From assembly GCA_964362125.1 (NCBI GenBank), contig CAYICS010000002.1:9302-73301 (forward strand): a stretch of DNA of 64,000 bases. The letters run 5' to 3'. Of the stretch, positions 23,592-54,215 are shown piece by piece (the first letter of the stretch is position 1; each line of letters begins with the position of its first letter). Under the pieces are notes generated by a model. The model was not told the origin of the DNA. It worked only from the letters and a program-made list of their open reading frames with translations, and made no database searches. A program made the translations under genes and the position numbers. The DNA is from an uncultured Candidatus Saccharibacteria bacterium (GTDB lineage: Bacteria > Patescibacteriota > Minisyncoccia > UBA6257 > UBA11618).

Positions 23592-24033
23592 CGGAGTAGA
23601 AATCAAGAAACTGAATATCATTCCTGATGAACGGGGAGCGATTTATCATATGCTCCGCCGCGATGATCCCCTTTTTGAACAATTCGGCGAAATTTATTTT
23701 TCCAAGGTTTATCCCGGAGTAATTAAGGGTTGGCATATCCATAAAGAGATGACTTTAAATTACGCCGTCATTTCAGGAATGATTAAGCTGGTTTTGTTTG
23801 ATGATCGGGAAGGCAGTGCCACCCGGGGCAATCTGATGGAGATATTTATGGGCGAAGATAATTATCTTTTGGTGAAAATCCCTAAGCTGATTTGGAACGG
23901 CTTTAAGGGTATTGGCAGTAAGCCAGCTATTGTTGCCAATTGTGCCACTCTACCGCACATTAAAGAAGAAATCGGGCGCCTTGATCCTTTTCACAATCAT
24001 ATTCCTTATAAATGGGATTTAATCAATGAATAA
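23551..24033 (+). CDS. RmlC-like cupin sugar epimerase or ketoisomerase
   Basis: 160 aa with a GWHIHK motif typical of dTDP-4-dehydrorhamnose-3,5-epimerase-like and FdtA-like cupins. Confidence 0.55.
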   Translation: MNGTVFGIKGQKIDGVEIKKLNIIPDERGAIYHMLRRDDPLFEQFGEIYFSKVYPGVIKGWHIHKEMTLNYAVISGMIKLVLFDDREGSATRGNLMEIFMGEDNYLLVKIPKLIWNGFKGIGSKPAIVANCATLPHIKEEIGRLDPFHNHIPYKWDLINE

Positions 24034-26269: not shown

Positions 26270-27345
26270 GAGTTTGTTATTTTGGGAAGTTTGATCCCAA
26301 TTACGCCCGCAACCGGGTTTTTATCCGAGGTTTAAAGAAAAACGGCGTTGAGGTGATTGAATGCAACTCGGATCGCCGCGGTTTATTCTCAGTTACCTGG
26401 GATTTAATAAAAAAACATCGTCAATTAAAAGACCAATATGATGTGATGGTTGTTGGTTTTTTGGGCCATACCCCAGCCATCTTAGCCAGCTTTATTACAA
26501 AAAAACCAATTGCTTTTAATGCCTTAATTTCTCTTTATGACAGCACTGTTTTTGATCGCAAGAACGTTTCACCGAGAAGCTGGCGGGCTCTATATTACTG
26601 GTTATTAGACAAACTTTCCTGTCAATTGGTAGATTTGGTTATTTTAGATACAGCCGCTCATATTGATTATTTTGTTAGAACTTTCCGCTTGCCAATTGAT
26701 AAATTCCAACGGGTTTTCGTCGGCTCTGATGAAGAAATTTTTTCCCCTCTGCCGGCGCCGCCGACTGGTAATAAATTTCTGGTGAATTTTCACGGCACTT
26801 TCATTCCTCTCCATGGCGCTGAATATATTGTTGAGGCCGCCAACCTTCTAAAAAAAGAAAACATTCATTTTAATTTGATCGGCCGCGGTCAGACTTATCA
26901 AGAAATCCATCAGTTAATTGTCAACCGTCAATTGTCAAATGTCAGTCTTATTGACTATCTGGGCTATCTCGACTCCCCGCCTTTTCAAAAACTAAAAAAA
27001 TATCTGGCTGAGGCCGATATTTGCCTGGGAATTTTTGGCAATACCCAGAAAGCCCGCAATGTCATTCCTAATAAAGTTTTTGAGATTTTGGCAATGAGGA
27101 AACCTTTATTAACCGGCGATTCTCCGGCTAGCCGGGAAATTCTTACTGACCGGACCAATGTTTTATTTTGTAAAATGGCCGACCCGGCTGATTTGGCTGA
27201 GAAAATCTTAGAGCTAAAAAATAATCAAGGACTGCGGGAGAAAATTGCCGCTAATGGTTATCACCTCTTTCAATCTCAACTCCGTTCTGATATTATAGGA
27301 AAACAGTTAAAAGAGATTCTCAATGAACTCTGCTCTAAAAATTAA
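26266..27345 (+). CDS. GT-B fold glycosyltransferase (GT1/GT4-like)
   Basis: 359 aa with a C-terminal Rossmann half (NKVFEILAMRKPLLTGDSPASREIL). Confidence 0.5.
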   Translation: MRVCYFGKFDPNYARNRVFIRGLKKNGVEVIECNSDRRGLFSVTWDLIKKHRQLKDQYDVMVVGFLGHTPAILASFITKKPIAFNALISLYDSTVFDRKNVSPRSWRALYYWLLDKLSCQLVDLVILDTAAHIDYFVRTFRLPIDKFQRVFVGSDEEIFSPLPAPPTGNKFLVNFHGTFIPLHGAEYIVEAANLLKKENIHFNLIGRGQTYQEIHQLIVNRQLSNVSLIDYLGYLDSPPFQKLKKYLAEADICLGIFGNTQKARNVIPNKVFEILAMRKPLLTGDSPASREILTDRTNVLFCKMADPADLAEKILELKNNQGLREKIAANGYHLFQSQLRSDIIGKQLKEILNELCSKN

Positions 27346-28786
27346 AACAATTTTTATCGCCGCCTTTCATACCCTAGCTTCAAGAAATATTTTGGCGACT
27401 GATGTTTTAAAAAGTTTAAGCGCTGACCCGGAACTGCGGCTGGTGATTTTTGTGCCGCTTTTTAAGACAGATTTTCTGAAAGAACAATACGGCCGGGATA
27501 ATATTATTTTTGTCGGATTCAATGAAAGACAATTAAATAATTATTTTTGGTTTGAAAACCTGACGTCACTGGCCTTCTCTTTTTTATCAACTTACACCGC
27601 TAAATTGCGTAGTCAGGAAAAATTAAGGAAAGAAAAGTCTTTGCGCGCCTTGGTAAAGTATGGCCGCAACCGGTTTGCCGGCGCTTTCCTTTCCCGCTTA
27701 ATGCCGGCCCGTTTTCTCTTGCGTTTTTTTGATCGGTTTTTTTCTCCGATTAAACTGCTTAATCAATATTTTGATCAATACCAGCCGCTGGCTGTTTTTG
27801 CCACTGATGTTTTTTTGGCGGCCGATGTCTTGTTTTTACAGGCAGCTAAAGCCCGAAGGATTCTCTCTATTGGCATGGTGCGTTCCTGGGACAACACTAC
27901 CACCAAAGGTTTAATGCGTTGCCTGCCGGACAAATTGATTGTCAATAATGAAATTATAAAGAAAGAAGCGGTGGAGTTACACGATTTTTCGGCTAAGAAC
28001 ATTTTTGTCAGCGGCTTACCGCAATTTGATATTGGTTTTCTGGGGAAAAGAACGCCGCGCCAGGAATTCTTCGGGAAAATCGGTCTTAATCCAAAAAAGA
28101 GAATGATTTTATTCGCCCCGGCGGGCCAGTTTCTTTCTGACACTGATTGGCAGATTTGCGAAATTTTAAAAAACGGCCTTGATCAAAAGAAAATTCCTTC
28201 TGATCTGCAATTTCTTGTCAGAAGCCACCCCATGGATCCGGCGCCTCTTTCCCAATTTCAGCCGGATGAACGGTTCGTTATTGAACGTCCCGGGACTTAT
28301 TTCAAAGTTGAGACAAGAAATTTGGGGGTGGTTTCAGGTCGACGGGTGGTGGCCGGCGATCCGGTTGACTTGGGTCAGCTGAACGCCAAATTAACGGAAA
28401 TGTCGCTTGATGATCTTAACCATCTTTTTGATTCTCTTTATCACTCGGAAATGCTGATTCAGGTTAACTCCACTATTGGTATTGATTCTTTAATTTTTGA
28501 TAAACCCGATATTATGATCGAATTCGACGGCTGGGAAAAGAAAAATTATCTAGACAGTGTTGAACGTTATCATCATGAGGATCATATGCAAAAATTTCTC
28601 AAAACTGGTGCGATTCGGATTGTTCGCAGTCAGGAAGAATTATTTGAGTGGATTAACAAATATCTGGAAGGGCCTGAACTAGATAGCGGAAAAAGAAAAA
28701 TCGGCGCCGGTCAACAGATTAAATTCCTTGATGGTCAATCAGGAAAAAGAGCGGCAGAATTTATTTTAAAAAGCATCAATGACTGA
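27323..28786 (+). CDS. TagB/TagF-like CDP-alcohol phosphotransferase family protein (Glyphos_transf-like)
   Basis: The C-terminal motif [25 protein letters not shown] resembles the TagF LITDYSSV...DKP block. Confidence 0.4.
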
Positions 28787-37384: not shown

Positions 37385-38350
37385 ATGAAGATTTTATATC
37401 TTTCTCATCCAACGCCGTTTAATTTTGATCTGATAGCCGGCTTAAAAAAACTGGGAGTAGAGATTTTTTATTTTAATGATGAATCAGGTTGGTTTATAAA
37501 TTCATTAAGGAGTCGTTTTTCTTTTGTCAGGCAGCTTAATAAAAAATTGCTGAACAAAAGATTAATCAAGACCTGCCGCCAATGGCAGCCCGATGTTTTC
37601 TTTACCACCAAAGGGATTACTATTAACCCGGAAACTCTGGCTCAAATCAAATCTTTAGGAATTAAGACCGTCAACTGGAATCTGGAGAATATTTATCACA
37701 AAGACTATTATCAGTGGTTTTTAAAAACAGCTGCTGCTTATAATCTGTTTATCAAGATGGATTCTTCCCGGGCAGATTCGATCAAGACCGGTTATCTGGC
37801 AGTGGCCATTAAACCAGAAAGATACCAGACACCGGATTTAACCGAGGATGAAAAAAGAAAATATCAATGTGATATTTTTTTCGCCGGCAGTTTTGATAAA
37901 GACCGGGAAGAATTGCTGTTATCAATAAAAGATTACGATTTGAAAGTTTTTGGTGATAAAAAATGGCAGGAGTCGCCATTAAAAGATTTTTATCACGGCG
38001 GCCCCCTGCCGTTAGAAGAATTTATTAAGGCCTGCTCCTGCGCTAAAATTTGTATCAATATTCAGCTTAAACCTGATACCTGCCGCGGGCTTAATCTTCG
38101 CGATTTTGAAGTGCCGGCCACCAGTAGTTTTTTACTCTCCCATTATCGGCCGGATATGGAAGAATTATTTGTTATTGGTAAAGAAATTGAAGTTTTTCGA
38201 AATGAGCAGGAGTTAAAAGAAAAAATTAAATTTTATCTGACAAATGACGATTTAAGAAAAAAAATAGCCGCCGCCGGCCAAGAACGGGTTTTGCGGAATC
38301 ACACTCTGGAGCGGCGGGCTAAGGAGCTTTTAACTTTGATAAATTCTTAA
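37385..38350 (+). CDS. CgeB-like / Glyco_trans_1_2 family protein
   Basis: 321 aa. The C-terminal LRKKIAAAGQERVLRNHTLERRAKEL block is typical of CgeB-family glycosyltransferase-like proteins. Confidence 0.4.
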   Translation: MKILYLSHPTPFNFDLIAGLKKLGVEIFYFNDESGWFINSLRSRFSFVRQLNKKLLNKRLIKTCRQWQPDVFFTTKGITINPETLAQIKSLGIKTVNWNLENIYHKDYYQWFLKTAAAYNLFIKMDSSRADSIKTGYLAVAIKPERYQTPDLTEDEKRKYQCDIFFAGSFDKDREELLLSIKDYDLKVFGDKKWQESPLKDFYHGGPLPLEEFIKACSCAKICINIQLKPDTCRGLNLRDFEVPATSSFLLSHYRPDMEELFVIGKEIEVFRNEQELKEKIKFYLTNDDLRKKIAAAGQERVLRNHTLERRAKELLTLINS

Positions 38351-39044
38351 AGCGGATTTCCGCCAATTGCCATTCTTCCGGGGTATTGATGTCAACTTCG
38401 TAAATAGGATTAGTGACATAAAGCTCAACTTTTTGGCCGTAGAGGCGGGAGGGTTTTTCGTAAAGATTTTTTGGTTTGAGAAGATAGATTATTTCATTGC
38501 GGGCATAGCATTTTTCCGGAAAGTCCTGTCGGCGGTTAATGATTTTTTTTAGAGGGATTCCGCCGAATAACGACACCTTTCCTTTTTTGTCTTGTGTAAG
38601 AGTCCAATAGGGCGTGTGATTAGCCGGGGTTTCGTTGACAGCCACCACCGAATCGCATCCTGTTTTCTTCATAATTTTAATGGCTTCATCAATATGCCAG
38701 CTTTGACGCAGGGGGTTGGTGCAGAAAAGCAGGGCTAGGGCGTCGGCAGAGTAGCTTTCTTTAGCTTTTAACCATTCGTAGACGTGTTTCATTACCGGCT
38801 CGATACCTATGGTAGCGGTGGCCAGCTCCGGAGGTCTTAAAAACGGCACTTCAGCGCCATAGCGCCGGGCAATTTTGGCAATTTCCGAACTATCAGTAGA
38901 AACAATCACCCGGTCCAGTTTTTTGCTTTTTAGGGCGGATAAAATTGTCCAAGCGATTAGGGGCCTGCCGCAGAAAATCTTGGTGTTCTTTTTTTTCGTT
39001 CGCTCGGAATTCCCCCGAGCTGGAATAACGCCAACTATTTTCAT
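38319..39044 (-). CDS. Acylneuraminate (nonulosonate) cytidylyltransferase, i.e. CMP-NulO synthetase (NeuA/PseF/LegF family)
   Basis: IPARGNSERTKKKNTKIFCGRPLIAWTI gives the CTP_transf_3 signature. The gene is 241 aa. Confidence 0.75.
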   Translation of the reverse strand: MKIVGVIPARGNSERTKKKNTKIFCGRPLIAWTILSALKSKKLDRVIVSTDSSEIAKIARRYGAEVPFLRPPELATATIGIEPVMKHVYEWLKAKESYSADALALLFCTNPLRQSWHIDEAIKIMKKTGCDSVVAVNETPANHTPYWTLTQDKKGKVSLFGGIPLKKIINRRQDFPEKCYARNEIIYLLKPKNLYEKPSRLYGQKVELYVTNPIYEVDINTPEEWQLAEIRFKNLSKLKAP

Positions 39045-39636: not shown

Positions 39637-40749
39637 ATGATAGAAAATTTTGAGAAATTAAAGAAAATTAAATTACTGGCCCTTGATTTTGATGGAGTGT
39701 TAACGCCGGCCAAGGTTATTGTTAGCGCCAACGGTGAAGAATCGGTGGTCTGTAGTCATCGCGACGGACAGGGCATAGAGTCAATTCGTAAGGCAGGGGT
39801 GCCGGTGGTTGTTATATCCGGTCAGCGCAGTCTATATGTTGAGAAGCGCTGTAATAAAATGGGCATAGATTTTTTTCAAAATATAAAAGACAAGCCAGCT
39901 TGTTTATTGGCATATCTAAAAGAAAAACATCCGTCCGTTGCCATTGAAGATGTTTGTTTTGTTGGCGATGACGCCAGCGACTTGGCTGTTATGAATATTG
40001 TCGGGGCGCCCATAGCAGTCGCTGATGGGACAGAAGAAGTAAAACAGCGGGCTTTGTTGGTTACTAATCGTAATGGCGGAGAAGGAGCGGTGCGGGAGGT
40101 GTGCGATATTATTATTAAGGCCAAAAGCAGTGATATTGATAATCACGCCTTTCTTAAAATTCTTATTACCGGCACCGGCGAAAGAGCAACAGAGGAAGTG
40201 CGGATGATAGCAAAAAATATTGCCGCTGTCTTTGGAAGAAATGGTGATATTATTTTAACTAACGGCGGCCCCAATGGGGTTCCAGAGGCGGCGGCGACCG
40301 GAGCTAATGAGGCCGGCGGCCATTCAGTCGCCTACACTTTTATGCCCGGCCGAACGACCGAATACACAAAAACCAAAGAAATTAAATCTTTCCCGGATTA
40401 TGAACAACGCAATGCCTATCTTTGTTCAGATTCGGATGTAGCTATTTTTTTCCAGGGGGGCTTGGGCACCGCCACTAAATTTTTTACACTCCTCCATCGT
40501 CTGGTCCATATTAATGGCGAATTGATGAAAAAGGGCTTCCCCTCGCTCCAAAGGCCCAAACTAATGATCGTTCATTCCAGTTTTGCTCCCAATGATTTAA
40601 TAAAATGCCAGGAGTTATTTGGACGCAATTTTAAACCAGAACACTTTGCGGCTGTACATTTCGCCGATACGGCGGAGGAAATTATTAAGATAGTTGATGG
40701 CTGGCGGGGAAAAGACAAAACCTTGACACCGGAGGATTTTTTATTATAG
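39637..40749 (+). CDS. Fusion of a KdsC-family HAD phosphatase (N-terminal) and a LOG/TIGR00730-like Rossmann domain (C-terminal)
   Basis: The N-terminal ~165 aa read LALDFDGVLT, RDGQG and VGDDASDL. The C-terminal ~200 aa read TNGGPNGVPEAAATGANEAGGHSVA and FFQGGLGTATKF, which resemble the LOG GGGxGT(L)EE motif. Confidence 0.6.
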   Translation: MIENFEKLKKIKLLALDFDGVLTPAKVIVSANGEESVVCSHRDGQGIESIRKAGVPVVVISGQRSLYVEKRCNKMGIDFFQNIKDKPACLLAYLKEKHPSVAIEDVCFVGDDASDLAVMNIVGAPIAVADGTEEVKQRALLVTNRNGGEGAVREVCDIIIKAKSSDIDNHAFLKILITGTGERATEEVRMIAKNIAAVFGRNGDIILTNGGPNGVPEAAATGANEAGGHSVAYTFMPGRTTEYTKTKEIKSFPDYEQRNAYLCSDSDVAIFFQGGLGTATKFFTLLHRLVHINGELMKKGFPSLQRPKLMIVHSSFAPNDLIKCQELFGRNFKPEHFAAVHFADTAEEIIKIVDGWRGKDKTLTPEDFLL

Positions 40750-44580: not shown

Positions 44581-45084
44581 ATGATTTCAAAAAAATTAAG
44601 CTTAAAATTAAAGAAAATTAAATTACTAGCCCTTGATTTTGACGGCGTTTTTACCGATGGCAAGGTTTATCTTAATCAAGACGGCATTGAGACTGTGGTT
44701 TGCAGTCGTCGTGACAGTTTGGGCTTGAATCGATTAAAGAAATTAGGCATTAAATTGGCGGTGATCTCCATGGAGCCCAATCCGATTGTGGCTAAAAGAT
44801 GTGAAAAACTTAAAATTGAAATGCTTTATAGTCCTGAAGGAAAAGGCGAGTTGCTTAAGCAATTGGTAAATAGAGAAAAGCTTTCACCTAACGAAGTTGG
44901 TTATATGGGAGACGATCTTAATGATCTTGATTGTTTAAAGTACGCGGGGGCGGCTTTCACTGTGGCTGATGGAGCTTTTCCTTGCTTAAAAACAGCTGAT
45001 TATGTTACCAAAAGAAAATCAGGAGATCATGCCCTTCGTGAAGTATGCGATCTGATTTTAAGAGCTTATGGACAAGAAACATAA
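44581..45084 (+). CDS. KdsC-family (HAD-IIIA) sugar-acid phosphate phosphatase
   Basis: Carries LALDFDGVFTDG, RRDSLG and MGDDLNDL. The first ~45 nt of the coding sequence are near-identical to the 5' end of the 39637 gene. Confidence 0.75.
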   Translation: MISKKLSLKLKKIKLLALDFDGVFTDGKVYLNQDGIETVVCSRRDSLGLNRLKKLGIKLAVISMEPNPIVAKRCEKLKIEMLYSPEGKGELLKQLVNREKLSPNEVGYMGDDLNDLDCLKYAGAAFTVADGAFPCLKTADYVTKRKSGDHALREVCDLILRAYGQET

Positions 45085-45892
45085 AATTGGAAGAAAAACC
45101 GCCTTATTAACCGGAGCATCTGGTTTTTTCGGCAGACAATTCACTGAGGCCTTATTAAACACCGGATTAAAAGTGATCGCTATTGATCAAAATAAAAATG
45201 GACTGGAGTCGATGAGAAAAGAATTAAACGGGAGATTTGGTCATAAACTTTTCACTTATCAAGTTGATCTTTATAATCGTAATCAAACCAAAGAATTATA
45301 CAGAAAAATTATCAAAGAGCATAAAAAGATTGATATTTTAGTCAATAACGCTTTTGATTTTAGCAGTAAAACCGGTTTTAACACGCCAGAAGGCAAGATT
45401 GAAAAAGCCACCCACGATCAATTTTTAGCTTGTTTTGAAGCTGGTGTTTATTGGGCTTTTGAAACCACTCAAGTTTTTGGTTTAGCTATGAAAGGCAATG
45501 GCGGCGGCTTAATTGTCAATATCGGAACAATGTACGCCCAATTTGTGCCTAACCCGTCTCTTTATGAAGGAACGCCGCAATTTAATCCATGGGGTTACAG
45601 CGCCAGCAAGGGAGCTTTATTGCAGTTCACCCGCTATGCGGCGGCTTGGTTGGCTCCGGAAGTACGGGTAAATATGATTTCCCCCGGCGTTTTTCCTCAT
45701 CCGCCGAAAGGAACCAAGAATCCGCCCAGTTCGGCGGTGTTAGATCGCCTGCAAAAAAAAATTCTTTTGCGGCGGGTGGGCAAACCGGAAGATTTAGTCG
45801 GGGCGCTGTTGTTTCTGATTTCTGATGCTTCCAGTTATATCACTGGCCAAAATTTTTGTATTGACGGCGGGATTACCGTGACTGTGACTTAA
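45068..45892 (+). CDS. Short-chain dehydrogenase/reductase, paralogue 1
   Basis: Carries TGASGFFG, NNAF, YSASKGAL and DGGITVTV. Confidence 0.75.
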   Translation: MDKKHKIGRKTALLTGASGFFGRQFTEALLNTGLKVIAIDQNKNGLESMRKELNGRFGHKLFTYQVDLYNRNQTKELYRKIIKEHKKIDILVNNAFDFSSKTGFNTPEGKIEKATHDQFLACFEAGVYWAFETTQVFGLAMKGNGGGLIVNIGTMYAQFVPNPSLYEGTPQFNPWGYSASKGALLQFTRYAAAWLAPEVRVNMISPGVFPHPPKGTKNPPSSAVLDRLQKKILLRRVGKPEDLVGALLFLISDASSYITGQNFCIDGGITVTVT

Positions 45893-45973: not shown

Positions 45974-46633
45974 CTATTGAGGCGGCAGGGTTAAGGGATT
46001 AATCCCCCAGGCTGTCAGGATGAAATTGGCAAAATCGCGGAAGGCGCCGTTGCCGCCGGAACGTTGCGAGACAAAGTCAACGATGCTTCTGATGGCAATA
46101 TCGGCGTTGGCTGGGGCGGCTCTTAAAAGCACCTTTCGTAGAATTTCCACATCTACTAAATCGTCGCCCATATAGGCGCAATCACTAAAAGTCAGGCCAA
46201 CTTCTTTAAGCCACTCCTCGGCTTTGGCAACTTTGCCGCCGCCGTAACTGCCTTCGTAAAGCCGGACAAGCTCCCAGCCGCCATCACCCGGGGCCTTGGA
46301 AGTAGAAGATAATTTGTTCCACTTCTCAACCACATCCCTGATATGCCGGCTGGCCTCGTTTTTTTCAGAGGTGATCAGGCAAACACGGACACCGATGGCT
46401 CGGAGTAAAGAGACGCCTTGGCCATCGTAGTAACTGCGCCTTTTGGATGGACTAAGTGGATCAACGGTATTATCAGTAAAGACCCCATCCACGTCCGAGA
46501 TGACAGCCCGAATGATTCCGGCTTTATTCCAGACCGCCTCAGAAGATTCGCCTGTCACCATATCTATGAAATGGTCTCTCGGTATGATCATTTTATTCTC
46601 CTTATTCTCCTCTTCAACAGTTTCGTTTGTCAA
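45974..46633 (-). CDS. KdsC-family phosphatase with an N-terminal extension
   Basis: Carries VISDVDGVFTD, YDGQG, MGDDLVD and GGNGAFRDF. Confidence 0.7.
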   Translation of the reverse strand: MTNETVEEENKENKMIIPRDHFIDMVTGESSEAVWNKAGIIRAVISDVDGVFTDNTVDPLSPSKRRSYYDGQGVSLLRAIGVRVCLITSEKNEASRHIRDVVEKWNKLSSTSKAPGDGGWELVRLYEGSYGGGKVAKAEEWLKEVGLTFSDCAYMGDDLVDVEILRKVLLRAAPANADIAIRSIVDFVSQRSGGNGAFRDFANFILTAWGINPLTLPPQ

Positions 46634-46717
46634 AGTGCGCCGAAGAACATCTTCGGCAATAGCCGGGATATTATCATAAAAAATCCCCCGGTGTCAAGGA
46701 CACCGAGGGGGGGTTGG

Positions 46718-48472
46718 TTAGCCGGTCAGATCAAGAATCTCGAGAGTCCGGCCGCTGTCAACCAGTTCCCGAGCCCGCAGGAAAACATCCATTGGCATGT
46801 CGCTGTAGTTGAGCGGGTCACCGGTCTTGGGATTATGCAAGAGTTTGGTGGCGTCGTCTAACTCCAGAACATACTGCTCGAAATTCTCATCGCAGATCGG
46901 CTGGTCGAACTGATCAAACTGGATGCCAAACACTTCCCAAAGCATCTGGCGAACCTTGGGATGGTTGCCCATGCTTGTTCCCGGATACCAGGTGGCAGTG
47001 AACATCCGTTTGTTGACTGTCTCCGGCCCCTTACCGCATTGGGCATAGAACTGCTCTTGCCAGCGCATAAAGGCCACACTCTGCTTGAGGTTAGCCAAGG
47101 TCTCGGTGGGGTAGGCCATGATCCAGGTGCAGTTGGCATGGATTCCGGCATACTCACAGTTCTCTGTGCCCTCCACCATACTGCGGGGGAACTCCATTTC
47201 CCGGCCATCAACTTTGACAGTTACCATCCCGTTACTCAGGATAAAACCGCCTTTGTGCATGGCCTCCAGGACTGGCGGTGAAGCGCTCTCGGCTCCAAAG
47301 CCGATGTAGACACAGCCAGCTTTAGCCATTGAATCAATGCGCTTGGGATCTTCCACTAGCCCTGTTTTGGGATGGCGGCCGGCGGCCTCATCCATCCGGG
47401 TATGAGTCCCCCAACGCATCTTCAGGGGCGCCAGCCACGGCTCTATATCCTGAACAATCCGTTTCTGGGTAACGGCGAAGTTGTCATCAGGCATGCCGAT
47501 GAAATCCACCCCATACTTATCGATATGGGACAGGAAAATCCTCGCCAATCTTTTACCAGAAAACACACCATAAGTACGTTCGCCTTGCGCTCCCCTAAAG
47601 CAGAAATCGCAGGCATGGGGACAACCGCGGCTGGAAACAAAAGTAGTACTGCGGCTCATGGCGAAGGAAGTGGCCGAGCTGTTATTGGCAGAAACTCCCC
47701 AGTTGGCATTGCCGATGTAACACTCCAACAGTCGGTTGCCGTTGACATCTTCCCGCAGTAGTTCCAGATCGGCAATGGCTAGACTATCCAGATCTTTGGG
47801 TCGGCCGCCATCATAAAGAAAGCGGTGCCGGCCATTGATGAAGCCGCGGTAGTAGGGTTGGACTTCGCCCCAATTGACAGCGCTTGTCCGGCCTCGATCT
47901 CTAATTGCCTTGGCATCATAGGCAATTTTGAGAATCACCTCGTCGCCTTCAGAATGAGCCACGCCATCCAGTTCAGGAATGTAGTTGAACAAACCTAAGC
48001 GCAGTTCAGTAGCCAAGCCATTGCCGCTGACCAGAAACACATCCGGCAAAAGCCGCCGGATGAGCTTGGCTACTGCTTTCTGCCACGGGAGAGTGGTGAT
48101 GATGCCGGAAAAGGCGACTAGATTCGGTTCGCCGTGAAAAAGAATGTGTTTTTTAATCAACTCCTCGGCTTCAGCCAGTGTCAGATGCCGGCCATTAGGC
48201 AGGCCGCGCTCCTGAGCCAGCTGGTCTTTGATCCGGTAGGCATTAAGGTCAATAATACTGGCCTCAACGCCGTAGTTGTCCCGGAGATTGGTGGCCAGCA
48301 TCAATGGCCCTTCCGGCGTGGTGTTGGGCACCGCGCTCTCCCGTAAAGGCATATTGATGAAAACCACCCGCAGACCAGCCAAATCTCTGTGGCTGATAGA
48401 ACTAACCACCGGGCCCGGGTCAACATACTGTCCCAGCTCCAAGCTGGTTACCGGCAACAGAACTGTGCTCAT
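46718..48472 (-). CDS. B12-binding-domain radical SAM protein (class-B-like)
   Basis: A CPHACDFC (Cx3Cx2C) cluster lies after an N-terminal Rossmann/B12-binding-like domain (VVFINMP...LVAFSG). The gene is 584 aa and relatively GC-rich. Confidence 0.6.
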   Translation of the reverse strand: MSTVLLPVTSLELGQYVDPGPVVSSISHRDLAGLRVVFINMPLRESAVPNTTPEGPLMLATNLRDNYGVEASIIDLNAYRIKDQLAQERGLPNGRHLTLAEAEELIKKHILFHGEPNLVAFSGIITTLPWQKAVAKLIRRLLPDVFLVSGNGLATELRLGLFNYIPELDGVAHSEGDEVILKIAYDAKAIRDRGRTSAVNWGEVQPYYRGFINGRHRFLYDGGRPKDLDSLAIADLELLREDVNGNRLLECYIGNANWGVSANNSSATSFAMSRSTTFVSSRGCPHACDFCFRGAQGERTYGVFSGKRLARIFLSHIDKYGVDFIGMPDDNFAVTQKRIVQDIEPWLAPLKMRWGTHTRMDEAAGRHPKTGLVEDPKRIDSMAKAGCVYIGFGAESASPPVLEAMHKGGFILSNGMVTVKVDGREMEFPRSMVEGTENCEYAGIHANCTWIMAYPTETLANLKQSVAFMRWQEQFYAQCGKGPETVNKRMFTATWYPGTSMGNHPKVRQMLWEVFGIQFDQFDQPICDENFEQYVLELDDATKLLHNPKTGDPLNYSDMPMDVFLRARELVDSGRTLEILDLTG

Positions 48473-48617
48473 CTTGCTATCCTCCAGTTTTGATTGATTA
48501 GATTGTAAAGGTGCTTTCTATTAATAATATACCACTTGCTAAAAAAATTGCTATATGCTAGTTTAGATAGTCTTTTGGCACCTCGGCAACCTGATAACCG
48601 AAAGAAGGGATAGAACG

Positions 48618-49448
48618 ATGACTGGATTGTTTTCTTTGACAGGCAAACTGGCAGTGCTGACTGGGGCGGCTGGCTTCTTTGGCCGGCCTTTTACCAAAGC
48701 CCTGCTTGAGGCCGACGCCACTGTCTTACTGCTTGACCGAAAAAGCGGCCAGCTCAACCAGTTGATTGAAGAACTGGTTCCGGGCTACGGCCGGGCACGA
48801 GCTATTTCTTATGCAGCTGATCTTTATCAGCCCCAAGAACGTGATCAGGTCTTTAAGCGGGTTTTGGAGGAGTGGGGCCCTCCTGACATTCTCATCAATA
48901 ACGCTTTTGACTTCACTGGCAGGACCGGTTTCAACATTGAAGCCGGCCGGCCGGAAAATACCACCTATGAACAACTGGAGGCCTGCTTCCAGTCAGCTTT
49001 CTACTGGGCCTTCTTCGCTACCCAAGCTCTGGGACCGAAGATGAAAGAACGCGGCCGCGGCTCGATCATCAACATCGGCACGATGTATGCTGACAGCGTC
49101 CCTAACATCAACAAGCTATATGCCGGCACCAATCAGTTCAATCCGCCCGGCTATAGCGCTGGCAAGGGCGCCTTACTGCAATTCACCAAGTACAGCGCTG
49201 CTTGGTTGGCGCCAAAGGTCCGAGTGAATATGATCTCTCCCGGCGCCTTTCCCCATCCGCCTGAAGGAACGCCCAACCCCGCCACTGAACTGGTATTGAG
49301 TCGGCTGCAGCAGAAGATTCTGCTGGAGCGAATGGGTAAGCCGGAGGATCTGATCGGCACCCTGATCTTTCTCGCTTCTGACGTTTCCAGCTACATCACC
49401 GGCGAGAACATTGGAGTCGATGGCGGCATCACAGTCACAGTCACGTAA
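48618..49448 (+). CDS. Short-chain dehydrogenase/reductase, paralogue 2
   Basis: About 60% identical to the 45068-45892 product, with the same TGAAGFFG, YSAGKGAL and DGGITVTVT blocks. Confidence 0.75.
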   Translation: MTGLFSLTGKLAVLTGAAGFFGRPFTKALLEADATVLLLDRKSGQLNQLIEELVPGYGRARAISYAADLYQPQERDQVFKRVLEEWGPPDILINNAFDFTGRTGFNIEAGRPENTTYEQLEACFQSAFYWAFFATQALGPKMKERGRGSIINIGTMYADSVPNINKLYAGTNQFNPPGYSAGKGALLQFTKYSAAWLAPKVRVNMISPGAFPHPPEGTPNPATELVLSRLQQKILLERMGKPEDLIGTLIFLASDVSSYITGENIGVDGGITVTVT

Positions 49449-49482
49449 TTAATCGGAGAAAAACGATCCACAATGGGGGCGG

Positions 49483-50541
49483 TTGACACCGCTCCTTTTT
49501 TTGTTCATATTAAAAGCTATTATGCCGCGGCGCTTTTTCCCCCAAAAATTTTTATCCCGCTTGGTCAGGTTTATTAAGAATCAGCCGCCTCTTGCCACAA
49601 AGGATGTTTTTATTGGCGGCCTGCCTGTTGGCCGGGGCCGCCCCTGCTTTTTTGCGGCAGAAATCGGGATTAACCACAATGGCAGTTTGGAAATTGCCAA
49701 GAAGCTTATTGATGCCGCCGCCTTTGCCGGCGCCCAAGCTGTTAAATTTCAAAAACGGACCGTTGCTAAAGTTTACTCTCCTGAAGAACTGGCCAAGCCG
49801 CGGGTTGTGGATAGGGCGGTTTTGGAAAATGCCGTTAAGCGCGGCGTCCTTTCCCGGGAAGCGGTTGAGCGGCTTCAACGCTCTGACTTTAAAGACAGCA
49901 CCAATGGCGATCTAAAATGGGCTTTGGAATTCACTGAATCTGAATATCGGGAATTATTTGCTTACGCTAAAGAGAGGGGCCTGCTTTGTTTTGCTTCGCC
50001 GTGGGATTTAGACAGTATTGATTTTTTGGAAAAACTTAATCCGCCCTGCCATAAGGTTGCTTCAGCTATGATTACTAATCATTCTCTTTTACGGAAAATC
50101 AGGACTACTGGCCGGCCCATCGTTCTTTCCACTGGTATGAGCACAATGGATGAAATAAAAGCGGCTATTAATATCGCTGGTCTGGATAATCTGATTATTC
50201 TTCATACTGTTTCCACTTATCCTTCAAAAGAAGAAGAGCTTAATTTGCAGTTAATTACCCATTTGCGCGGGCTTTTCCCAACTGTGCCTATTGGCTACAG
50301 CGGCCATGAAAAAACTCTTGCGCCATCATTAATGGCAGTCAGCTTAGGGGCGCACTTGATTGAACGTCATTTGACACTGGACAAAACAATGTTCGGCACT
50401 GATCAGTCGGCTAGCTTGGAGCCGCAGGAATTTGCCCAACTTATTCACGATGTGCGGCTGATAGAACAGGCGGCCGGCGGCCGGGTGAAGCAAGTGATGT
50501 CTTCAGAGGTGCCGATTAGAGAAAAACTACGGAAAGTTTAA
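49483..50541 (+). CDS. NeuB/PseI/LegI-family nonulosonate (or nonulosonate-9-phosphate) synthase
   Basis: Carries PCFFAAEIGINHNGSLEIAKKLIDAAAFAGAQAVKFQKR, the NeuB signature. The C-terminus looks short for a full SAF domain. The start could be 49483 or the ATG at 49522. Confidence 0.7.
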   Translation: MTPLLFLFILKAIMPRRFFPQKFLSRLVRFIKNQPPLATKDVFIGGLPVGRGRPCFFAAEIGINHNGSLEIAKKLIDAAAFAGAQAVKFQKRTVAKVYSPEELAKPRVVDRAVLENAVKRGVLSREAVERLQRSDFKDSTNGDLKWALEFTESEYRELFAYAKERGLLCFASPWDLDSIDFLEKLNPPCHKVASAMITNHSLLRKIRTTGRPIVLSTGMSTMDEIKAAINIAGLDNLIILHTVSTYPSKEEELNLQLITHLRGLFPTVPIGYSGHEKTLAPSLMAVSLGAHLIERHLTLDKTMFGTDQSASLEPQEFAQLIHDVRLIEQAAGGRVKQVMSSEVPIREKLRKV

Positions 50542-50703
50542 GAAGAATCTGTTAGTTAAAAATATTAACAACTTATGGTGCGGTCGTTATAAATTTGTTA
50601 ATATTTTCAACAAGTTTATTGGCAGTACCGCGCGGCAATAAAAGCTTGCCAAGATCTCGGGTTTATTATAATATATAGCCGGTTCTCAATAATCCAATAT
50701 AGA

Positions 50704-50743
50704 AATTTGTGTTGACGGCGGGATCACAGTCACTGTTACCTGA
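50704..50743 (+). pseudogene. Remnant of the 3' end of an SDR paralogue
   Basis: aatttgtgttgacggcgggatcacagtcactgttacctga encodes ..CVDGGITVTVT*, which matches the 3' ends of the genes at 45068 and 48618. No upstream homology remains. Confidence 0.4.
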
Positions 50744-50757
50744 AATGGAGGTGGATA

Positions 50758-51906
50758 GTGTCCAGCAAGCTGTTCGTGTTTGTGGTGGGAGATATCGGCG
50801 GCGCCAAAATGATACTGCCGGTGATTCCCCTGTTCAAGAAAGCAGGAGTGGATGTGGAGGTGATGGCCGACAGTGAAGGCGAGGGCTATAAAGTTCTCAA
50901 TGAGGCCGGCGTCAAGACTTACAACATCACTGAAGCTGATGTTGGCGGGACAAGAGGGGTGCCGTTGGAAGAGGCGAATCTTCTTTTCATCGGCACCTGC
51001 GGCACAGCCAATAAGTTAGAGAGAGGAGCAGCTGCTCAGTATTTCAGTCAGAAGCCAATAGTGTTAGGGGCTGATGGCTTCTTCAATCACAACCGGTTGG
51101 ATTGGCGCGAGGCCAAAGCTGATTACTGGTTTGCCATTACTGAAGAACACACCATTGATATCCGGAGGCGCCGGCCCAATCTGGCGCCGGATAAAGTACT
51201 GGTCGTCGGCAATCCGGCTTTTGATAATTTGCCGACGCTCTACAAGCGCAAAGGCGAGGTGCGACAGCAAAGACGGCAGGAACTGGGGCTGACTGATAAC
51301 CAAATCCTGGCTATCTGGTGGTCGCAAGGCACAGAGTGCGTCTTGAGAGAAGATGTCGCCTATACCTTTGAATCAATTCAATGTCTCTCTTGTCTTGGCC
51401 GACCAGTGATGTTTGCGGCAATGGTTCATCCCAAAGTGGAGAGAATTAGGGCTGGCTACATCGCCGAGATCTATAAGCAAATAGAGACGACGGCGATTCA
51501 GTGCCGCGTTGATGTTCTTCCAGAGAGCGCCGTTAAAGGCAAAATGCCTTTTGAGGAGTTTTGTCTGGCGGCTGATGTCATCTTTGACATCACCAGCACT
51601 GAGGGCATCAAAAGCAATATTCTTGGCGGCCCGCCGCTGATTCACTTCGCTGGCGTTGAAACCAGACGCTGGTTTGAGCAAGATCTGGGATTGGAACCGC
51701 CAGACTATCTGCCAGACGTGCGCACTGGCCAATCGTTTACTGCCAATGATTTTATACAGCTGGCTGAAACGATTAGAGCGGCCGTTAGAGGTAATTCTCC
51801 TCTGCCTCGGGAAGAATATCTAAAACAATGCAGTTGGCAGCCGCCAACCATCCACAATGCCGCCGAAAGAATCGCCGAGGCGCTGTTGGAGATAGGCGGT
51901 GTGTAA
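50758..51906 (+). CDS. UDP-GlcNAc 2-epimerase-like (NeuC/WecB-fold) protein with a GTG start
   Basis: N-terminus LFVFVVGDIGGAKMILPVI resembles the Epimerase_2 N-terminus, and VVGNPAFDNL follows. A GGAGGTGG RBS lies upstream. The gene is GC-richer than its neighbours. Confidence 0.4.
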   Translation: MSSKLFVFVVGDIGGAKMILPVIPLFKKAGVDVEVMADSEGEGYKVLNEAGVKTYNITEADVGGTRGVPLEEANLLFIGTCGTANKLERGAAAQYFSQKPIVLGADGFFNHNRLDWREAKADYWFAITEEHTIDIRRRRPNLAPDKVLVVGNPAFDNLPTLYKRKGEVRQQRRQELGLTDNQILAIWWSQGTECVLREDVAYTFESIQCLSCLGRPVMFAAMVHPKVERIRAGYIAEIYKQIETTAIQCRVDVLPESAVKGKMPFEEFCLAADVIFDITSTEGIKSNILGGPPLIHFAGVETRRWFEQDLGLEPPDYLPDVRTGQSFTANDFIQLAETIRAAVRGNSPLPREEYLKQCSWQPPTIHNAAERIAEALLEIGGV

Positions 51907-51941: not shown

Positions 51942-52934
51942 TTGGGGAGGGAGCTTCCCAACCGCCTATTTTTGTTGTATAATTTTGTAACCATGAAAAT
52001 TCTTCACTGGAAAATCAACCCGGTTTTACAAAAAACAACAGAAGCTGACTATCGAAATCAACTGGCGGCAAAACTACAAGACCACGACGCCCTGACAATT
52101 CTTCGAGATCTAAGTTTAGACGGAGTGGCGCCGAATATAACTTTTCAGGATTTGGAAAATCTGATTAAGTTTACTGAAAAAAAATTCCTGGAGAGAAAAT
52201 TATCCGGAGTGGGCTTGGAATTGGGTTCGGGGCCGGCGCCTTTTAGTGCTGTTTTAGCCAAACGACCCGAGATACAAAAGATGTATGCGGTCGAGCTTTG
52301 CCGGCCGATTGTGGAGATTCTTCTGCCGAAAATGGCTGAGGCGGCGGCCGGCCCGGCGGCTGGCAAAATTGTTGGCTGTGTCGGAGAATTTGATAATTTG
52401 GAACTGCCGGATAATTATCTTGATTTTATGATTGATTTTTTTTCTTTGCATCACTCCCCTGACCCGATTAAAACTTTGAAAGAATGCCGGCGCGTCTTAA
52501 AATCAGGCGGGGTTATTATTTGTTTTGACAAAGCCCGGCCCGATGACCTGACAACCGCTGATCTTGATCGTCTGCTGGATAAAGAATACGAAGATGATTT
52601 TAAAAAGCGAATGGGCATTCCCTTAACCCAAAAACTCACCCGCCGCCAGAACGGCGAACACGAATACCGTTTGAAGGATTGGCAAAATTATTTTAATCAG
52701 TCTGGTTTCTCCGAATTTTATCATTTTCGCCTTGACCAGTGCCGCAGTGGACTTTTTCCAATAAAGATGATAAAATATATACTGTCAATTTTACCCGTAA
52801 AAATGGAGACAATGATCACCCAATTTTTACCTCAATCACTAGATCAATATCAGCTGGCTTGGGATAATCGCCTTTTCACGCCGATCATTAACAATTTCCG
52901 CAAGGAGATGTCATTGATGATTGCTTCCCAGTAA
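51942..52934 (+). CDS. Class I SAM-dependent methyltransferase. The start may be the ATG at 51993.
   Basis: Motif I reads GLELGSGPAPFS, followed by VIICFDKARPDD. Confidence 0.55.
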   Translation: MGRELPNRLFLLYNFVTMKILHWKINPVLQKTTEADYRNQLAAKLQDHDALTILRDLSLDGVAPNITFQDLENLIKFTEKKFLERKLSGVGLELGSGPAPFSAVLAKRPEIQKMYAVELCRPIVEILLPKMAEAAAGPAAGKIVGCVGEFDNLELPDNYLDFMIDFFSLHHSPDPIKTLKECRRVLKSGGVIICFDKARPDDLTTADLDRLLDKEYEDDFKKRMGIPLTQKLTRRQNGEHEYRLKDWQNYFNQSGFSEFYHFRLDQCRSGLFPIKMIKYILSILPVKMETMITQFLPQSLDQYQLAWDNRLFTPIINNFRKEMSLMIASQ

Positions 52935-54215
52935 ACGGCTTTTCTCAATTTCCCAAATAAAAATATTAATAATAATATTAATAATCCGGCTTATTATGTA
53001 AGCGGTCACCATGCCAGCGATGCCCATAGTCAGACCTAAAGTTATATAAAGGATCAGTCTTACGATAGTTCCAAGAATGGTGGATGTATAAATTCCTCTA
53101 ATAAGTTTTTGTGAGAAAAAGACCGCCCCGATAAAGCCGGCGCTCAAACCCAAAGCCATATCAATGGCCAGCATCCGGGAATAGATAACCGCATCGGGAT
53201 ATTTGGGAAAGATTATTTGAAAAAGAGTAGAAGCAATCAGGGCGTAGACTATGCCAACCGCCGCTCCGATTATAAATGTCTGAAATAATCTTCTATAAAA
53301 TATCCTGCTTACTTCCGCTGAATTTTTTTCTGAAAGTTTAGGAAGAAAAGTGCCTGACAGCGACTTTAAAAAAGTATAGATGTTGTTAGGGAATGTTTGG
53401 GCAATGGCGTACAAGGCCAAGGTTTCCGGCCCCTTCATTCCGAAAAGAATAATACTGTCTAATTGTCTGGCGATAACATTAAAAATTTCTACAATAGTGA
53501 GGTGCCGGGCATAATTTTTAAATCCTTCATCGCTGACGGAGGTTAAAGGTTTTGATTGGTATTTTTTCTTTGTTGCCAGATAGAAAAGAAAACTTTGGAT
53601 TGCTTCCACAAAAGCAAATACCGCTATCAAAAAAATAACATTGTTGAAAATTAGTAAAGCAGCCACCGTTAAAATGGCGGTAGTCAATTCCTCCACCGAG
53701 ACATAGATAGCCGATTGTTTAAAATCCTTCTTGCCGGCAAGATAAGAACGATAGAGCCGAAAGGCGGTTATTAAAGGAGTGAATATGCCTAAAATTAATA
53801 AGGAGATGCCGATAACTAGCGAGTCCTTCATCAAGTAGTAAGAAGCAACGATAAAACAAGCCAAAACGTAGATAAACCCCCATCTTATTTGGTAAGCAAC
53901 TCCTTTATCAAGAGCGTTGTTATCGCTTTTAGCCACCGCTTGCACAATGGCTGTGCCTAAACCGCGAATGGTAAAAATCATCAATGTCCCGATTAATGAG
54001 AAAATAAATTTATAGGTGCCGTAGTCAGCCTTATCAAAAATGTTGGCCAGAGCAATTCCGGAAATAAGAGAGGCGGCCATCGCCGAAACATTTTCCAGCC
54101 CTATCCAGAAGCCGCCTTTAACAAAATAACGAACATCTGTCCGCGTCTTTTTTTCCAAAAATAAAAGTGTCTTTTTTAACATTGACGGGTTTTTATTATT
54201 GTGTAATAATAACAC
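52911..54215 (-). CDS. Wzx-like polysaccharide flippase (MOP superfamily, Polysacc_synt)
   Basis: 434 aa with about 12 TM helices. The N-terminus VKGGFWIGLENVSAMAASLISGIALANIF is typical of Wzx. Confidence 0.65.
   Translation of the reverse strand: MLLLHNNKNPSMLKKTLLFLEKKTRTDVRYFVKGGFWIGLENVSAMAASLISGIALANIFDKADYGTYKFIFSLIGTLMIFTIRGLGTAIVQAVAKSDNNALDKGVAYQIRWGFIYVLACFIVASYYLMKDSLVIGISLLILGIFTPLITAFRLYRSYLAGKKDFKQSAIYVSVEELTTAILTVAALLIFNNVIFLIAVFAFVEAIQSFLFYLATKKKYQSKPLTSVSDEGFKNYARHLTIVEIFNVIARQLDSIILFGMKGPETLALYAIAQTFPNNIYTFLKSLSGTFLPKLSEKNSAEVSRIFYRRLFQTFIIGAAVGIVYALIASTLFQIIFPKYPDAVIYSRMLAIDMALGLSAGFIGAVFFSQKLIRGIYTSTILGTIVRLILYITLGLTMGIAGMVTAYIISRIINIIINIFIWEIEKSRLLGSNHQ

Follow-up and report, generated by a model that had tools for sequence, protein, structure and literature searches.

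The radical SAM gene and its locus

This study analysed a stretch of 64,000 nucleotides (the window) from an uncultured Candidatus Saccharibacteria bacterium (contig CAYICS010000002.1) and concerns a gene in it for a radical S-adenosylmethionine (SAM) enzyme of the class B type, in which a B12-binding domain is joined to a radical SAM domain. An earlier annotation made from the letters of the DNA alone (the sequence-only reading) had described a 584-residue protein with the motif CPHACDFC, and both the open reading frame (ORF), which starts with ATG, and the motif were located at the position it gave. As the protein aligned end to end with homologues of 560–600 residues, the ORF is an intact gene, neither a pseudogene nor a chance reading frame.

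A single extended glycan locus, exceeding 50 kb, makes up the window and contains glycosyltransferases, 4,6-dehydratases, aminotransferases, a formyltransferase and a sugar C-methyltransferase. About 40 of the approximately 57 ORFs of at least 150 residues were scanned, and nearly all annotated genes relate to glycan biosynthesis. No tRNA gene and no Rfam family at the gathering score was found in the 64-kb window, so that riboswitches, that for cobalamin included, are absent from it at this score. The neighbours named by the sequence-only reading, namely two KdsC-like phosphatases, two short-chain dehydrogenases/reductases (SDRs) and a NeuB-family synthase, were all present (Table 1).

Table 1. 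Features of the radical SAM gene and of the related genes in the window.
Feature	Position	Strand	Basis and remarks
Radical SAM gene, class B type, 584 aa	46718..48472	-	ORF, PF04055, weak PF02310, AlphaFold2 model, Foldseek
N-terminal Rossmann (B12-binding-like) domain, residues 33-195	47888..48376	-	DSSP of AlphaFold2 model; TokK alignment
CxxxCxxC [4Fe-4S] cluster motif CPHACDFC	47600..47623	-	Residues 284-291; C284, C288, C291; translation
Radical SAM barrel domain, residues ~275-470	47063..47650	-	PF04055; D329-D330-N331 aligned to TokK
C-terminal domain, family-specific, residues ~471-584	46721..47062	-	Conserved in family; without Pfam match
Terminator-like hairpin immediately 3' of the radical SAM stop codon	46685..46709	-	11-bp stem, 8 GC pairs, then T-run; pattern match only
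KdsC-b, KdsC/KDN-9-P-phosphatase-like HAD (haloacid dehalogenase) phosphatase, downstream of the radical SAM gene	45974..46633	-	Cassette KdsC profile, 146.9 bits
SDR-b, divergent from the radical SAM gene, 145 bp away	48618..49448	+	Pfam adh_short_C2, 9.8e-36
NeuB-family ulosonate synthase, condensing phosphoenolpyruvate (PEP), without SAF	49483..50541	+	Pfam NeuB, 5e-71; no SAF match
382-aa protein in the GC-rich block	50758..51906	+	Homologues in 5 related loci, near NeuB-like gene
Class I SAM methyltransferase	51942..52934	+	Pfam Methyltransf_11; 'MT10' cluster match, 420.9 bits
Wzx-type flippase (Polysacc_synt)	52911..54215	-	Pfam; cassette flippase profile, 404.9 bits
CMP-ulosonate cytidylyltransferase (CTP_transf_3, PseF-like)	38319..39044	-	Pfam; cassette CTP profile, 336.6 bits
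KdsC-a, KdsC-family phosphatase, low GC	44581..45084	+	TIGR01670, 116.7 bits (cut-off 106.95)
SDR-a, paralogue of SDR-b	45068..45892	+	57% identity to SDR-b
KdsC-like phosphatase fused to SLOG/LOG-like domain	39637..40749	+	TIGR01670, 127.8 bits; Pfam LDcluster4
TagF-like (Glyphos_transf) transferase	27323..28786	+	Pfam PF04464; cassette TagF profile, 583.7 bits

The hairpin that follows the radical SAM stop codon overlaps a promoter-like, near-consensus site, TTGACA-16-GATAAT, which lies before KdsC-b (46670–46709, reverse strand; pattern match only). The hairpin and this site suggest that the radical SAM gene and KdsC-b may be transcribed separately.

Linkage to a CMP-ulosonic-acid cassette

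For the comparison across genomes, 80 loci were fetched from species-representative genomes and their ORFs were scored with profiles built from the window's proteins. Linkage was counted in 37 loci of at least 12 kb carrying a member of the family to which the window protein belongs and in 24 control loci carrying other class B enzymes. A cytidylyltransferase of the CTP_transf_3 type, which activates sugars with cytidine monophosphate (CMP), was present in 34 of the 37 family loci, in 29 of them within 2 kb and in 17 within 200 bp of the radical SAM gene (median distance, 95 bp), and in one of the 24 controls. The corresponding numbers were 32 and 2 for the NeuB-like synthase, 23 and 0 for the KdsC-like phosphatase, and 20 and 3 for the SDR. 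These counts against the controls demonstrate that the radical SAM enzyme is a core part of a CMP-ulosonic-acid cassette. The tie to a NeuB/KdsC sugar cassette, which the sequence-only reading had drawn, is therefore conserved across dozens of genomes.

The same data bear on the possibility that the enzyme acts on the finished polymer, on a lipid carrier or on a protein, and that its gene only happens to lie among glycan genes. Given how many unrelated tailoring genes are found in this glycan locus, proximity in this one place says little against such a target. However, the radical SAM gene stays linked to the cytidylyltransferase and NeuB-like genes in different phyla with very different surrounding genes, and also in a compact cassette of Roseibium that lies among unrelated genes, which makes a target other than the monomer very improbable.

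De novo clustering of the ORFs neighbouring the radical SAM gene in the family loci revealed further partners: a TagF-like transferase in 19 loci, a flippase in 16, a protein of the AP_endonuc_2 fold in 15, a SIS_2 isomerase in 11 (median 119 bp from the radical SAM gene) and a class I methyltransferase ('MT10') in 10 (median 46 bp). The typical gene order in the Candidate Phyla Radiation (CPR) is Flip <NeuB <AP_endonuc_2 <SDR <SDR <KdsC >rSAM >CTP <TagF, where rSAM is the radical SAM gene. The SDRs, where present, thus stand in the opposite operon together with AP_endonuc_2 and NeuB, and tandem SDR pairs are typical. In a Paceibacterota genome, a 932-residue protein (L010:7214–10012, reverse strand) that is encoded divergently from the adjoining radical SAM gene fuses CTP_transf_3, NeuB, SAF and AP_endonuc_2 domains, which ties the CTP_transf_3, NeuB and AP_endonuc_2 steps into one pathway. 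Four loci that were inspected singly showed the same partners, plus extras such as a transketolase and a second B12-type radical SAM enzyme.

The Roseibium cassette (L030:5227–14404, Roseibium sp.; also L032, L037, L050 and L051) is compact and its flanking genes are unrelated. It consists of an FNR-like oxidoreductase, a NeuB-like synthase, a KdsC-like phosphatase, a class I methyltransferase, a 248-residue protein, the radical SAM enzyme and the CTP_transf_3 enzyme, and contains no SDR. It is followed by a convergent gene for a 632-residue protein with N-terminal tetratricopeptide repeats (TPR) and a C-terminal part of approximately 400 residues, which is possibly a candidate FlmG-like protein glycosyltransferase. 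An ATP-grasp gene is also present in the cassette region.

Every core partner of the cassette has an orthologue in the window, although these are not gathered side by side but spread over 27–54 kb. The TagF-like orthologue comes after the radical SAM–cytidylyltransferase pair in 19 related loci, and AP_endonuc_2 and SIS genes were absent from the window in the search with the cassette profiles. Judged by their sequence similarity, the window's two SDRs look like the usual tandem pair split apart.

The family itself was delimited in a homologue library of 1.8 billion representatives, in which only 45 proteins were found at E<1e-30. Most full-length members scored well above 300 bits, a sister clade of shorter proteins scored approximately 120–220 bits, and other class B enzymes remained below approximately 100 bits; the mean column identity within the family was 61%. 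Owing to this gap in the scores, the family of the window protein is, on sequence comparison, compact and distinct, and it is uncharacterised. No NCBIfam model was above its cut-off: the best, BchE, reached 48.5 bits against 481. Together with BchE, the best models, ApyD, KedN5, PhpK and HpnJ, gave 26–48 bits against cut-offs of 480–750, and all class B models other than BchE, including also HpnR, the C-methylases of ribosomally synthesised peptides (RiPPs) and the MCR (methyl-coenzyme M reductase) glutamine methylase, gave 10–43 bits against 251–750.

The members belong mostly to Patescibacteria (CPR) and Nanoarchaeota, the main carriers being ultra-small bacteria of groundwater, and further members were found in Roseibium, including the cultured R. 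hamelinense ATCC BAA-252, and in Polyangiaceae, Planctomycetota, Opitutia, Nitrospirae and Sphingomonadales. Contigs identical to that of the window came from 0.1-µm filtrates of the Hainich groundwater well H51, an origin that suggests a host from the Patescibacteria (CPR). The sister clade comprises proteins of approximately 430–480 residues with 29–39% identity. One of them, from a deltaproteobacterium (L055:3030–4391), passed the Pfam B12-binding model with 56.2 bits; its surroundings, an FAD oxidoreductase neighbour and housekeeping genes, gave no hint of the substrate.

Two homologues of approximately 913–919 residues (P0097 and P0116) are interrupted by an intein that carries a LAGLIDADG domain (PF14528). 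In P0097, which was the one aligned, it lies within the CxxxCxxC motif (region of residues 284–292 of the window protein), with the N-extein ending in SRGCPFSCAF, the intein running from CLPETP to ATHN, and the C-extein beginning with CYRGAQGE. From this position, the third cluster-ligating cysteine is also the +1 splicing nucleophile.

The sequence-only reading had further remarked that the gene is richer in GC than the average of the locus. This was correct, with a GC content of 0.542, compared with 0.433 for the window, and a value at third codon positions (GC3) of 0.627, but it is not special to this locus: in 36 of 39 related loci (L004–L058), the radical SAM gene had a higher GC content than the locus around it. 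Its GC3 exceeded that of nearby genes outside the cassette in 36 of 38 loci, with a mean difference of +0.086, and the NeuB-like gene alone among the cassette partners shared this trend. High GC thus characterises the family and does not indicate that the gene was imported recently. A recently transferred island was rejected as the sole explanation of the GC-rich block (45974–51906), since the family is rich in GC and GC3 relative to its neighbours in almost every genome.

Fold, cobalamin site and possible chemistries

The AlphaFold2 model, built on 31 homologues, was confident, with a pLDDT of 88.7 and a pTM of 0.88. In it, a Rossmann domain of five strands is followed by a radical SAM barrel and this in turn by a C-terminal domain. 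In the N-terminal domain, DSSP assigned strands at residues 35–40, 70–75, 118–122, 146–150 and 170–173, which alternate with five helices over residues 35–193. A five-strand/five-helix Rossmann domain ahead of the radical SAM domain characterises class B enzymes of the N-terminal-domain type (PMC12931638). Such a fold, whose absence would have spoken against the sequence-only reading, is present in the prediction. The Pfam Radical_SAM model PF04055 matched residues 280–466 with 36.8 bits (cut-off 29.5), and the three cysteines of the cluster motif were invariant in the relatives of both family alignments (A1, 31 aligned; A2, 22 aligned).

Foldseek found several radical SAM structures with a probability of 1.00. 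The top matches in the PDB were TsrM, TokK, AprD4, QCMT/MgmA and CysS, at E-values of 1e-10 to 1e-13 and approximately 15% identity. The class B architecture that had been proposed from the letters alone is thus borne out by the HMM matches, by the model and by the matches to TsrM, TokK, QCMT and CysS. A placement with HemN or coproporphyrinogen oxidase, which had been named as the case that would overturn it, was not found among the Pfam and NCBIfam matches or the top 50 Foldseek matches. The C-terminal domain had no Pfam match, and the sequence-based PDB alignments stopped by approximately residue 413; this domain is probably a substrate cap.

When the PDB sequences were searched with the family profile, TokK was the best match (45.8 bits), and the alignment took in its cobalamin domain, residues 115–180 of the window protein aligning to TokK residues 65–130. 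TokK, ThnK and CysS, which are cobalamin-dependent sequential C-methylases, share with the window protein the order of a Rossmann cobalamin domain, a radical SAM barrel and a C-terminal cap. TokK also shares x-S-x on β3, G-x-G on β4, EG before α5, RGC in front of the cluster and D-x-N-F where the GGE motif lies. In contrast, the identity to these enzymes is only approximately 15%, the C-terminal domain is unrelated, and their context is a carbapenem or polyketide pathway, whereas that of the family is a CMP-sugar cassette.

The cobalamin-contact motifs of class B enzymes have been defined from TokK, TsrM and OxsB (PMC9204698), and they were mapped onto the window protein through the HMMER alignment to TokK and the family alignments. 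The downstream cobalamin motif (G/A-x-S/T-x, β3-α3 loop) corresponded to A120-F-S122-G123, aligned to TokK A70-L-S72-C73, and the Gly-Gly motif on β4 to G150-N-G152, aligned to TokK G100-G101-P. The loop between β1 and α1 (residues 41–53) has 13 residues and contains no histidine, and R282 takes the position of TokK R204, which contacts the dimethylbenzimidazole (DMB) tail of the cofactor. S122, G123, G150, G152, E175 and G176 were invariant in the family alignments. The sequence-only reading had advised a check of the cobalamin-binding residues; the A-x-S and G-x-G motifs, the loop without histidine and R282 speak for binding, but the Gly-Glu motif before α5 is retained only in part (S174-E175-G176-D177 against G-E-G-E in TokK, of which E175 and G176 remain). 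In the sister clade, the motif takes its canonical form, GEGE. In the radical SAM domain, D329-D330-N331 aligned to TokK D250-A251-N252, the 'GGE' SAM-binding motif (PMC9204698); from this alignment, SAM appears to ligate the cluster in the canonical way, and a fourth ligand like that of TsrM was not apparent.

Taken together, we consider it probable on these residues that the window protein binds cobalamin, but several observations weigh against this or against methylation as its use. Of the two Pfam assignments expected by the sequence-only reading, PF04055 was obtained, but the B12-binding model PF02310 (residues 55–178) remained under its threshold with 19.6 bits against 32.1 (E = 8.5e-4). 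At E≤0.01, however, PF02310 was matched by all 22 members of the family and sister clade that were tested (best E, 2.9e-18). The hosts are mostly CPR and DPANN organisms with minimal metabolism, in which cobalamin would need to be salvaged. A study of the Hainich groundwater reported cobalamin among the few vitamin pathways that were not missing (PMC8672522). Furthermore, class I methyltransferases often adjoin the radical SAM gene, and methyl groups of the sugar could derive from them. The remaining contrary observations concern AprD4, which binds no cobalamin (PMC12931638), and the residues around the lower face of the cofactor.

AprD4 is the 1,2-diol dehydratase of apramycin biosynthesis and works with the reductase AprD3. 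If the window protein were a cobalamin-independent enzyme of this kind, the radical would take a carbinol hydrogen, the adjacent hydroxyl would leave, and an SDR in the role of AprD3 would reduce the keto-deoxy ulosonate to an extra-deoxy ulosonic acid. The AprD4 structure (6fd2) was among the top Foldseek matches (E = 2e-12) with the best target-normalised TM-score (0.65–0.66), so that its structural match is about as good as those of the methylases, and AprD4 was also the best PDB sequence match of the sister clade (84.8 bits, radical SAM core only). AprD4 acts on a sugar and has a Rossmann-like N-terminal domain without cobalamin and an NADPH-dependent reductase partner (PMC12931638, PMC5461906). 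The window has a possible oxidoreductase partner in SDR-b, which is divergently adjacent at 145 bp; its best NCBIfam models, all below cut-off, were of sugar-acid dehydrogenases, namely glucose 1-dehydrogenase, gluconate 5-dehydrogenase, mannonate oxidoreductase and KduD, the last of which acts on a 2-keto-3-deoxy acid.

However, the family profile aligned with AprD4 only over residues 273–359 of the radical SAM core (22.7 bits), and the N-terminal domain of AprD4 was aligned in none of the PDB sequence searches with the family profile, the N-terminal domain or the sister clade. The search with the N-terminal domain alone found the cobalamin domain of TokK and not AprD4. In addition, the family shows no variation in its cobalamin-contact residues, and at the position before the cluster motif where the family and TokK have the DMB-contacting arginine, a phenylalanine stands in AprD4. 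AprD4, with 457 residues, also lacks the insertions and the C-terminal domain of the family. The putative reductase is not a constant partner either, since an SDR was present in just 20 of the 37 loci and in none of the compact Roseibium cassettes and, where present, is placed in the operon opposite to the radical SAM gene, with AP_endonuc_2 and NeuB. We regard an AprD4-like dehydration as unlikely, but as a rival to be taken seriously.

Another alternative is that the enzyme is of class B but carries out a radical reaction other than methylation on the ulosonate, such as ring contraction or carbocycle formation (as in OxsB, HpnJ and BchE), oxidation or epimerisation, in which cobalamin would serve as an electron sink or remain unused. 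C387, which is invariant, and C448, which is almost so, could act as hydrogen donors of the kind seen in radical epimerases, a role that is inferred, and we know of no class B epimerase. OxsB, which performs a ring contraction, resembles the window protein in its cobalamin and radical SAM domains, its arginine after the cluster, its polar lower-axial site and its nucleoside or sugar substrate. Over the radical SAM domain, the family profile gave OxsB 23.5 bits, at least as much as the corresponding part of TokK (15.8 bits). The residues Trp76 (lower-axial) and Trp215 (stacking) of TokK are replaced by Thr126 and Arg293 in the window protein. T126 is hydrophilic and invariant, and the lower-axial position is occupied by tryptophan or leucine in characterised radical methylases and by polar groups in the non-methylases TsrM and OxsB (PMC12931638). 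R293, two residues past the cluster motif, corresponds to OxsB R323 (PMC9204698).

Nevertheless, these residue arguments are thin and the differences in score are within noise. The lower-axial residue was rejected as a discriminator between methylases and non-methylases, being too weak because the tryptophan of TokK is not conserved among methylases, as its authors stated. OxsB also differs in its CX4CX2C motif and its additional N-terminal domain (PMC9204698), and most of the characterised class B enzymes are methylases (PMC12931638, PMC9204698). Non-methylating chemistry of this kind therefore appears rather doubtful, if somewhat less so than dehydration.

C-methylation with methylcobalamin is accordingly our first choice for the reaction, albeit a tentative one. 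It is suggested by the retention of the cobalamin motifs, by the majority of methylases among the characterised class B enzymes, by the existence of sugar C-methylases and by the Roseibium cassette, which has no SDR, so that the radical SAM step there would need no dedicated reductase, as would fit a methyl transfer.

Among the known class B enzymes, GenK, GenD1 and MoeK5 are sugar C-methyltransferases, which methylate carbons that are not activated, and Fom3 is the methylase of a CMP-linked phosphonate; the precedent of a CMP-linked substrate fits the tight pairing of the radical SAM gene with that of the cytidylyltransferase, its closest partner. These four enzymes serve as precedents and come from secondary-metabolite clusters, not from CMP-sugar pathways of surface glycans. 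The related NCBIfam models PhpK, KedN5, HpnR and others gave 11–29 bits against cut-offs of 600–700.

Proposed pathway and its significance

The partners in the window allow a pathway to be proposed. In the first step, the NeuB homologue without an SAF domain would condense PEP with a phosphorylated aldose. This synthase scored 236 bits with NeuB_NnaB (cut-off 400) and 207 bits with PseI (cut-off 340), and its best PDB match was 6ncs, of 290 residues and likewise SAF-less; of such NeuB homologues, only an environmental group that is uncharacterised is known (PMC8208679). In the second step, a KdsC-like phosphatase would remove the phosphate. Three KdsC-like genes are present in the window, and KdsC-a and KdsC-b share only 25% identity. 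In NCBIfam, KdsC-b scored 87.7 bits with KDN-9-P phosphatase and 67 bits with KdsC, both below cut-off; its nearness to the former model points to a phosphorylated aldose as substrate, like those used on the way to Kdo, to KDN and, in animals, to Neu5Ac.

In the third step, the SDRs (elsewhere also the AP_endonuc_2-fold enzyme and the SIS isomerase) would adjust the stereochemistry or oxidation state, and in the fourth the CTP_transf_3 enzyme, which scored 146.6 bits with the PseF model (below its cut-off of 205.7), would produce the CMP-sugar. Finally, TagF-like or glycosyl transferases and the flippase would place the sugar on a surface polymer.

In this pathway, the radical SAM enzyme would cleave SAM reductively at the [4Fe-4S] cluster of the CxxxCxxC motif. 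The resulting 5'-deoxyadenosyl radical would remove a hydrogen atom at an unactivated carbon, either in the ulosonate or in its CMP ester, and a methyl group passed on by the methylcobalamin of the N-terminal Rossmann domain would yield a C-methyl-branched ulosonic acid. The substrate class, an ulosonate or its CMP ester, is very probably assigned correctly. The explanation as a whole, in which a class B radical SAM enzyme belongs to a CMP-3-deoxy-2-ulosonic-acid cassette (sialic-acid-like or Kdo-like) with methylcobalamin-dependent C-methylation as its likeliest reaction, is the best that we can offer, but it is put forward with caution.

The canonical pathways of the nonulosonic acids and Kdo (NeuB/NeuA, PseI/PseF, LegI/LegF, KDN-9-P and KdsA/KdsC/KdsB) similarly use PEP condensation, dephosphorylation and CMP activation by homologous enzymes, but the window's synthase differs from the canonical ones in lacking SAF and in remaining under the cut-offs of their NeuB and PseI models. 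The sequence-only reading had spoken of a nonulosonate; a 3-deoxy-2-ulosonic acid is indeed indicated by the SAF-less NeuB homologue, but nine carbons are not necessary. To our knowledge, no radical SAM enzyme occurs in any canonical nonulosonic-acid or Kdo pathway, nor does any known pathway of sialic-acid-like sugars involve radical chemistry. In a literature search, no paper was found that connects radical SAM enzymes with nonulosonic or ulosonic acids, with NeuB or with flagellin glycosylation, and a search with terms for CPR and nonulosonic acids, together with a preprint surveying CMP-sugars, gave nothing relevant. The family and its fixed role in a CMP-ulosonate pathway thus appear undescribed, although enzymes of this class are known.

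Sialic-acid-like sugars (Neu, Leg, Pse, Kdn and Kdo) shape the recognition of microbial surfaces, and the cell-surface chemistry of CPR and DPANN organisms is almost unknown. A radical SAM enzyme as the fixed partner of a synthase and a cytidylyltransferase in hundreds of genomes would imply an undescribed sugar on their envelopes and would add a new class of substrates to those of the class B radical SAM enzymes. It is conceivable, and we advance it with more reserve than the explanation above, that a radical-SAM-dependent branch of sialic-acid-like sugar synthesis is the main CMP-ulosonate pathway of CPR and DPANN organisms and is found in some Proteobacteria as well. Its product, made from a phosphorylated aldose by an SAF-less NeuB homologue, might be ulosonic acids of a new class, with C-alkylation, an additional deoxygenation or a rearranged skeleton. 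If the enzyme depends on cobalamin, very reduced genomes would carry a requirement for this cofactor. Because cultured Roseibium, including R. hamelinense ATCC BAA-252, has the same cassette, the question is experimentally accessible.

Some further observations were made in the window and the related loci. The 382-residue protein of the GC-rich block matched nothing in Pfam, NCBIfam or the PDB. A second radical SAM gene, for a 267-residue protein of the radical SAM–SPASM type, adjoins the family member in two loci (L040:8965–9768 and L042:9055–9861), and in a locus of Nanoarchaeota the family member is adjoined by a 669-residue B12-type radical SAM protein (L008:9722–11731). In the window itself, a 747-residue protein (24026–26269, forward strand) joins an NDP-sugar 4,6-dehydratase/epimerase domain to an aminotransferase domain of the DegT type, and a 519-residue protein (55278–56837, forward strand) combines a weak match to 2-oxoglutarate (2OG)-Fe(II) oxygenases with a class I methyltransferase domain.

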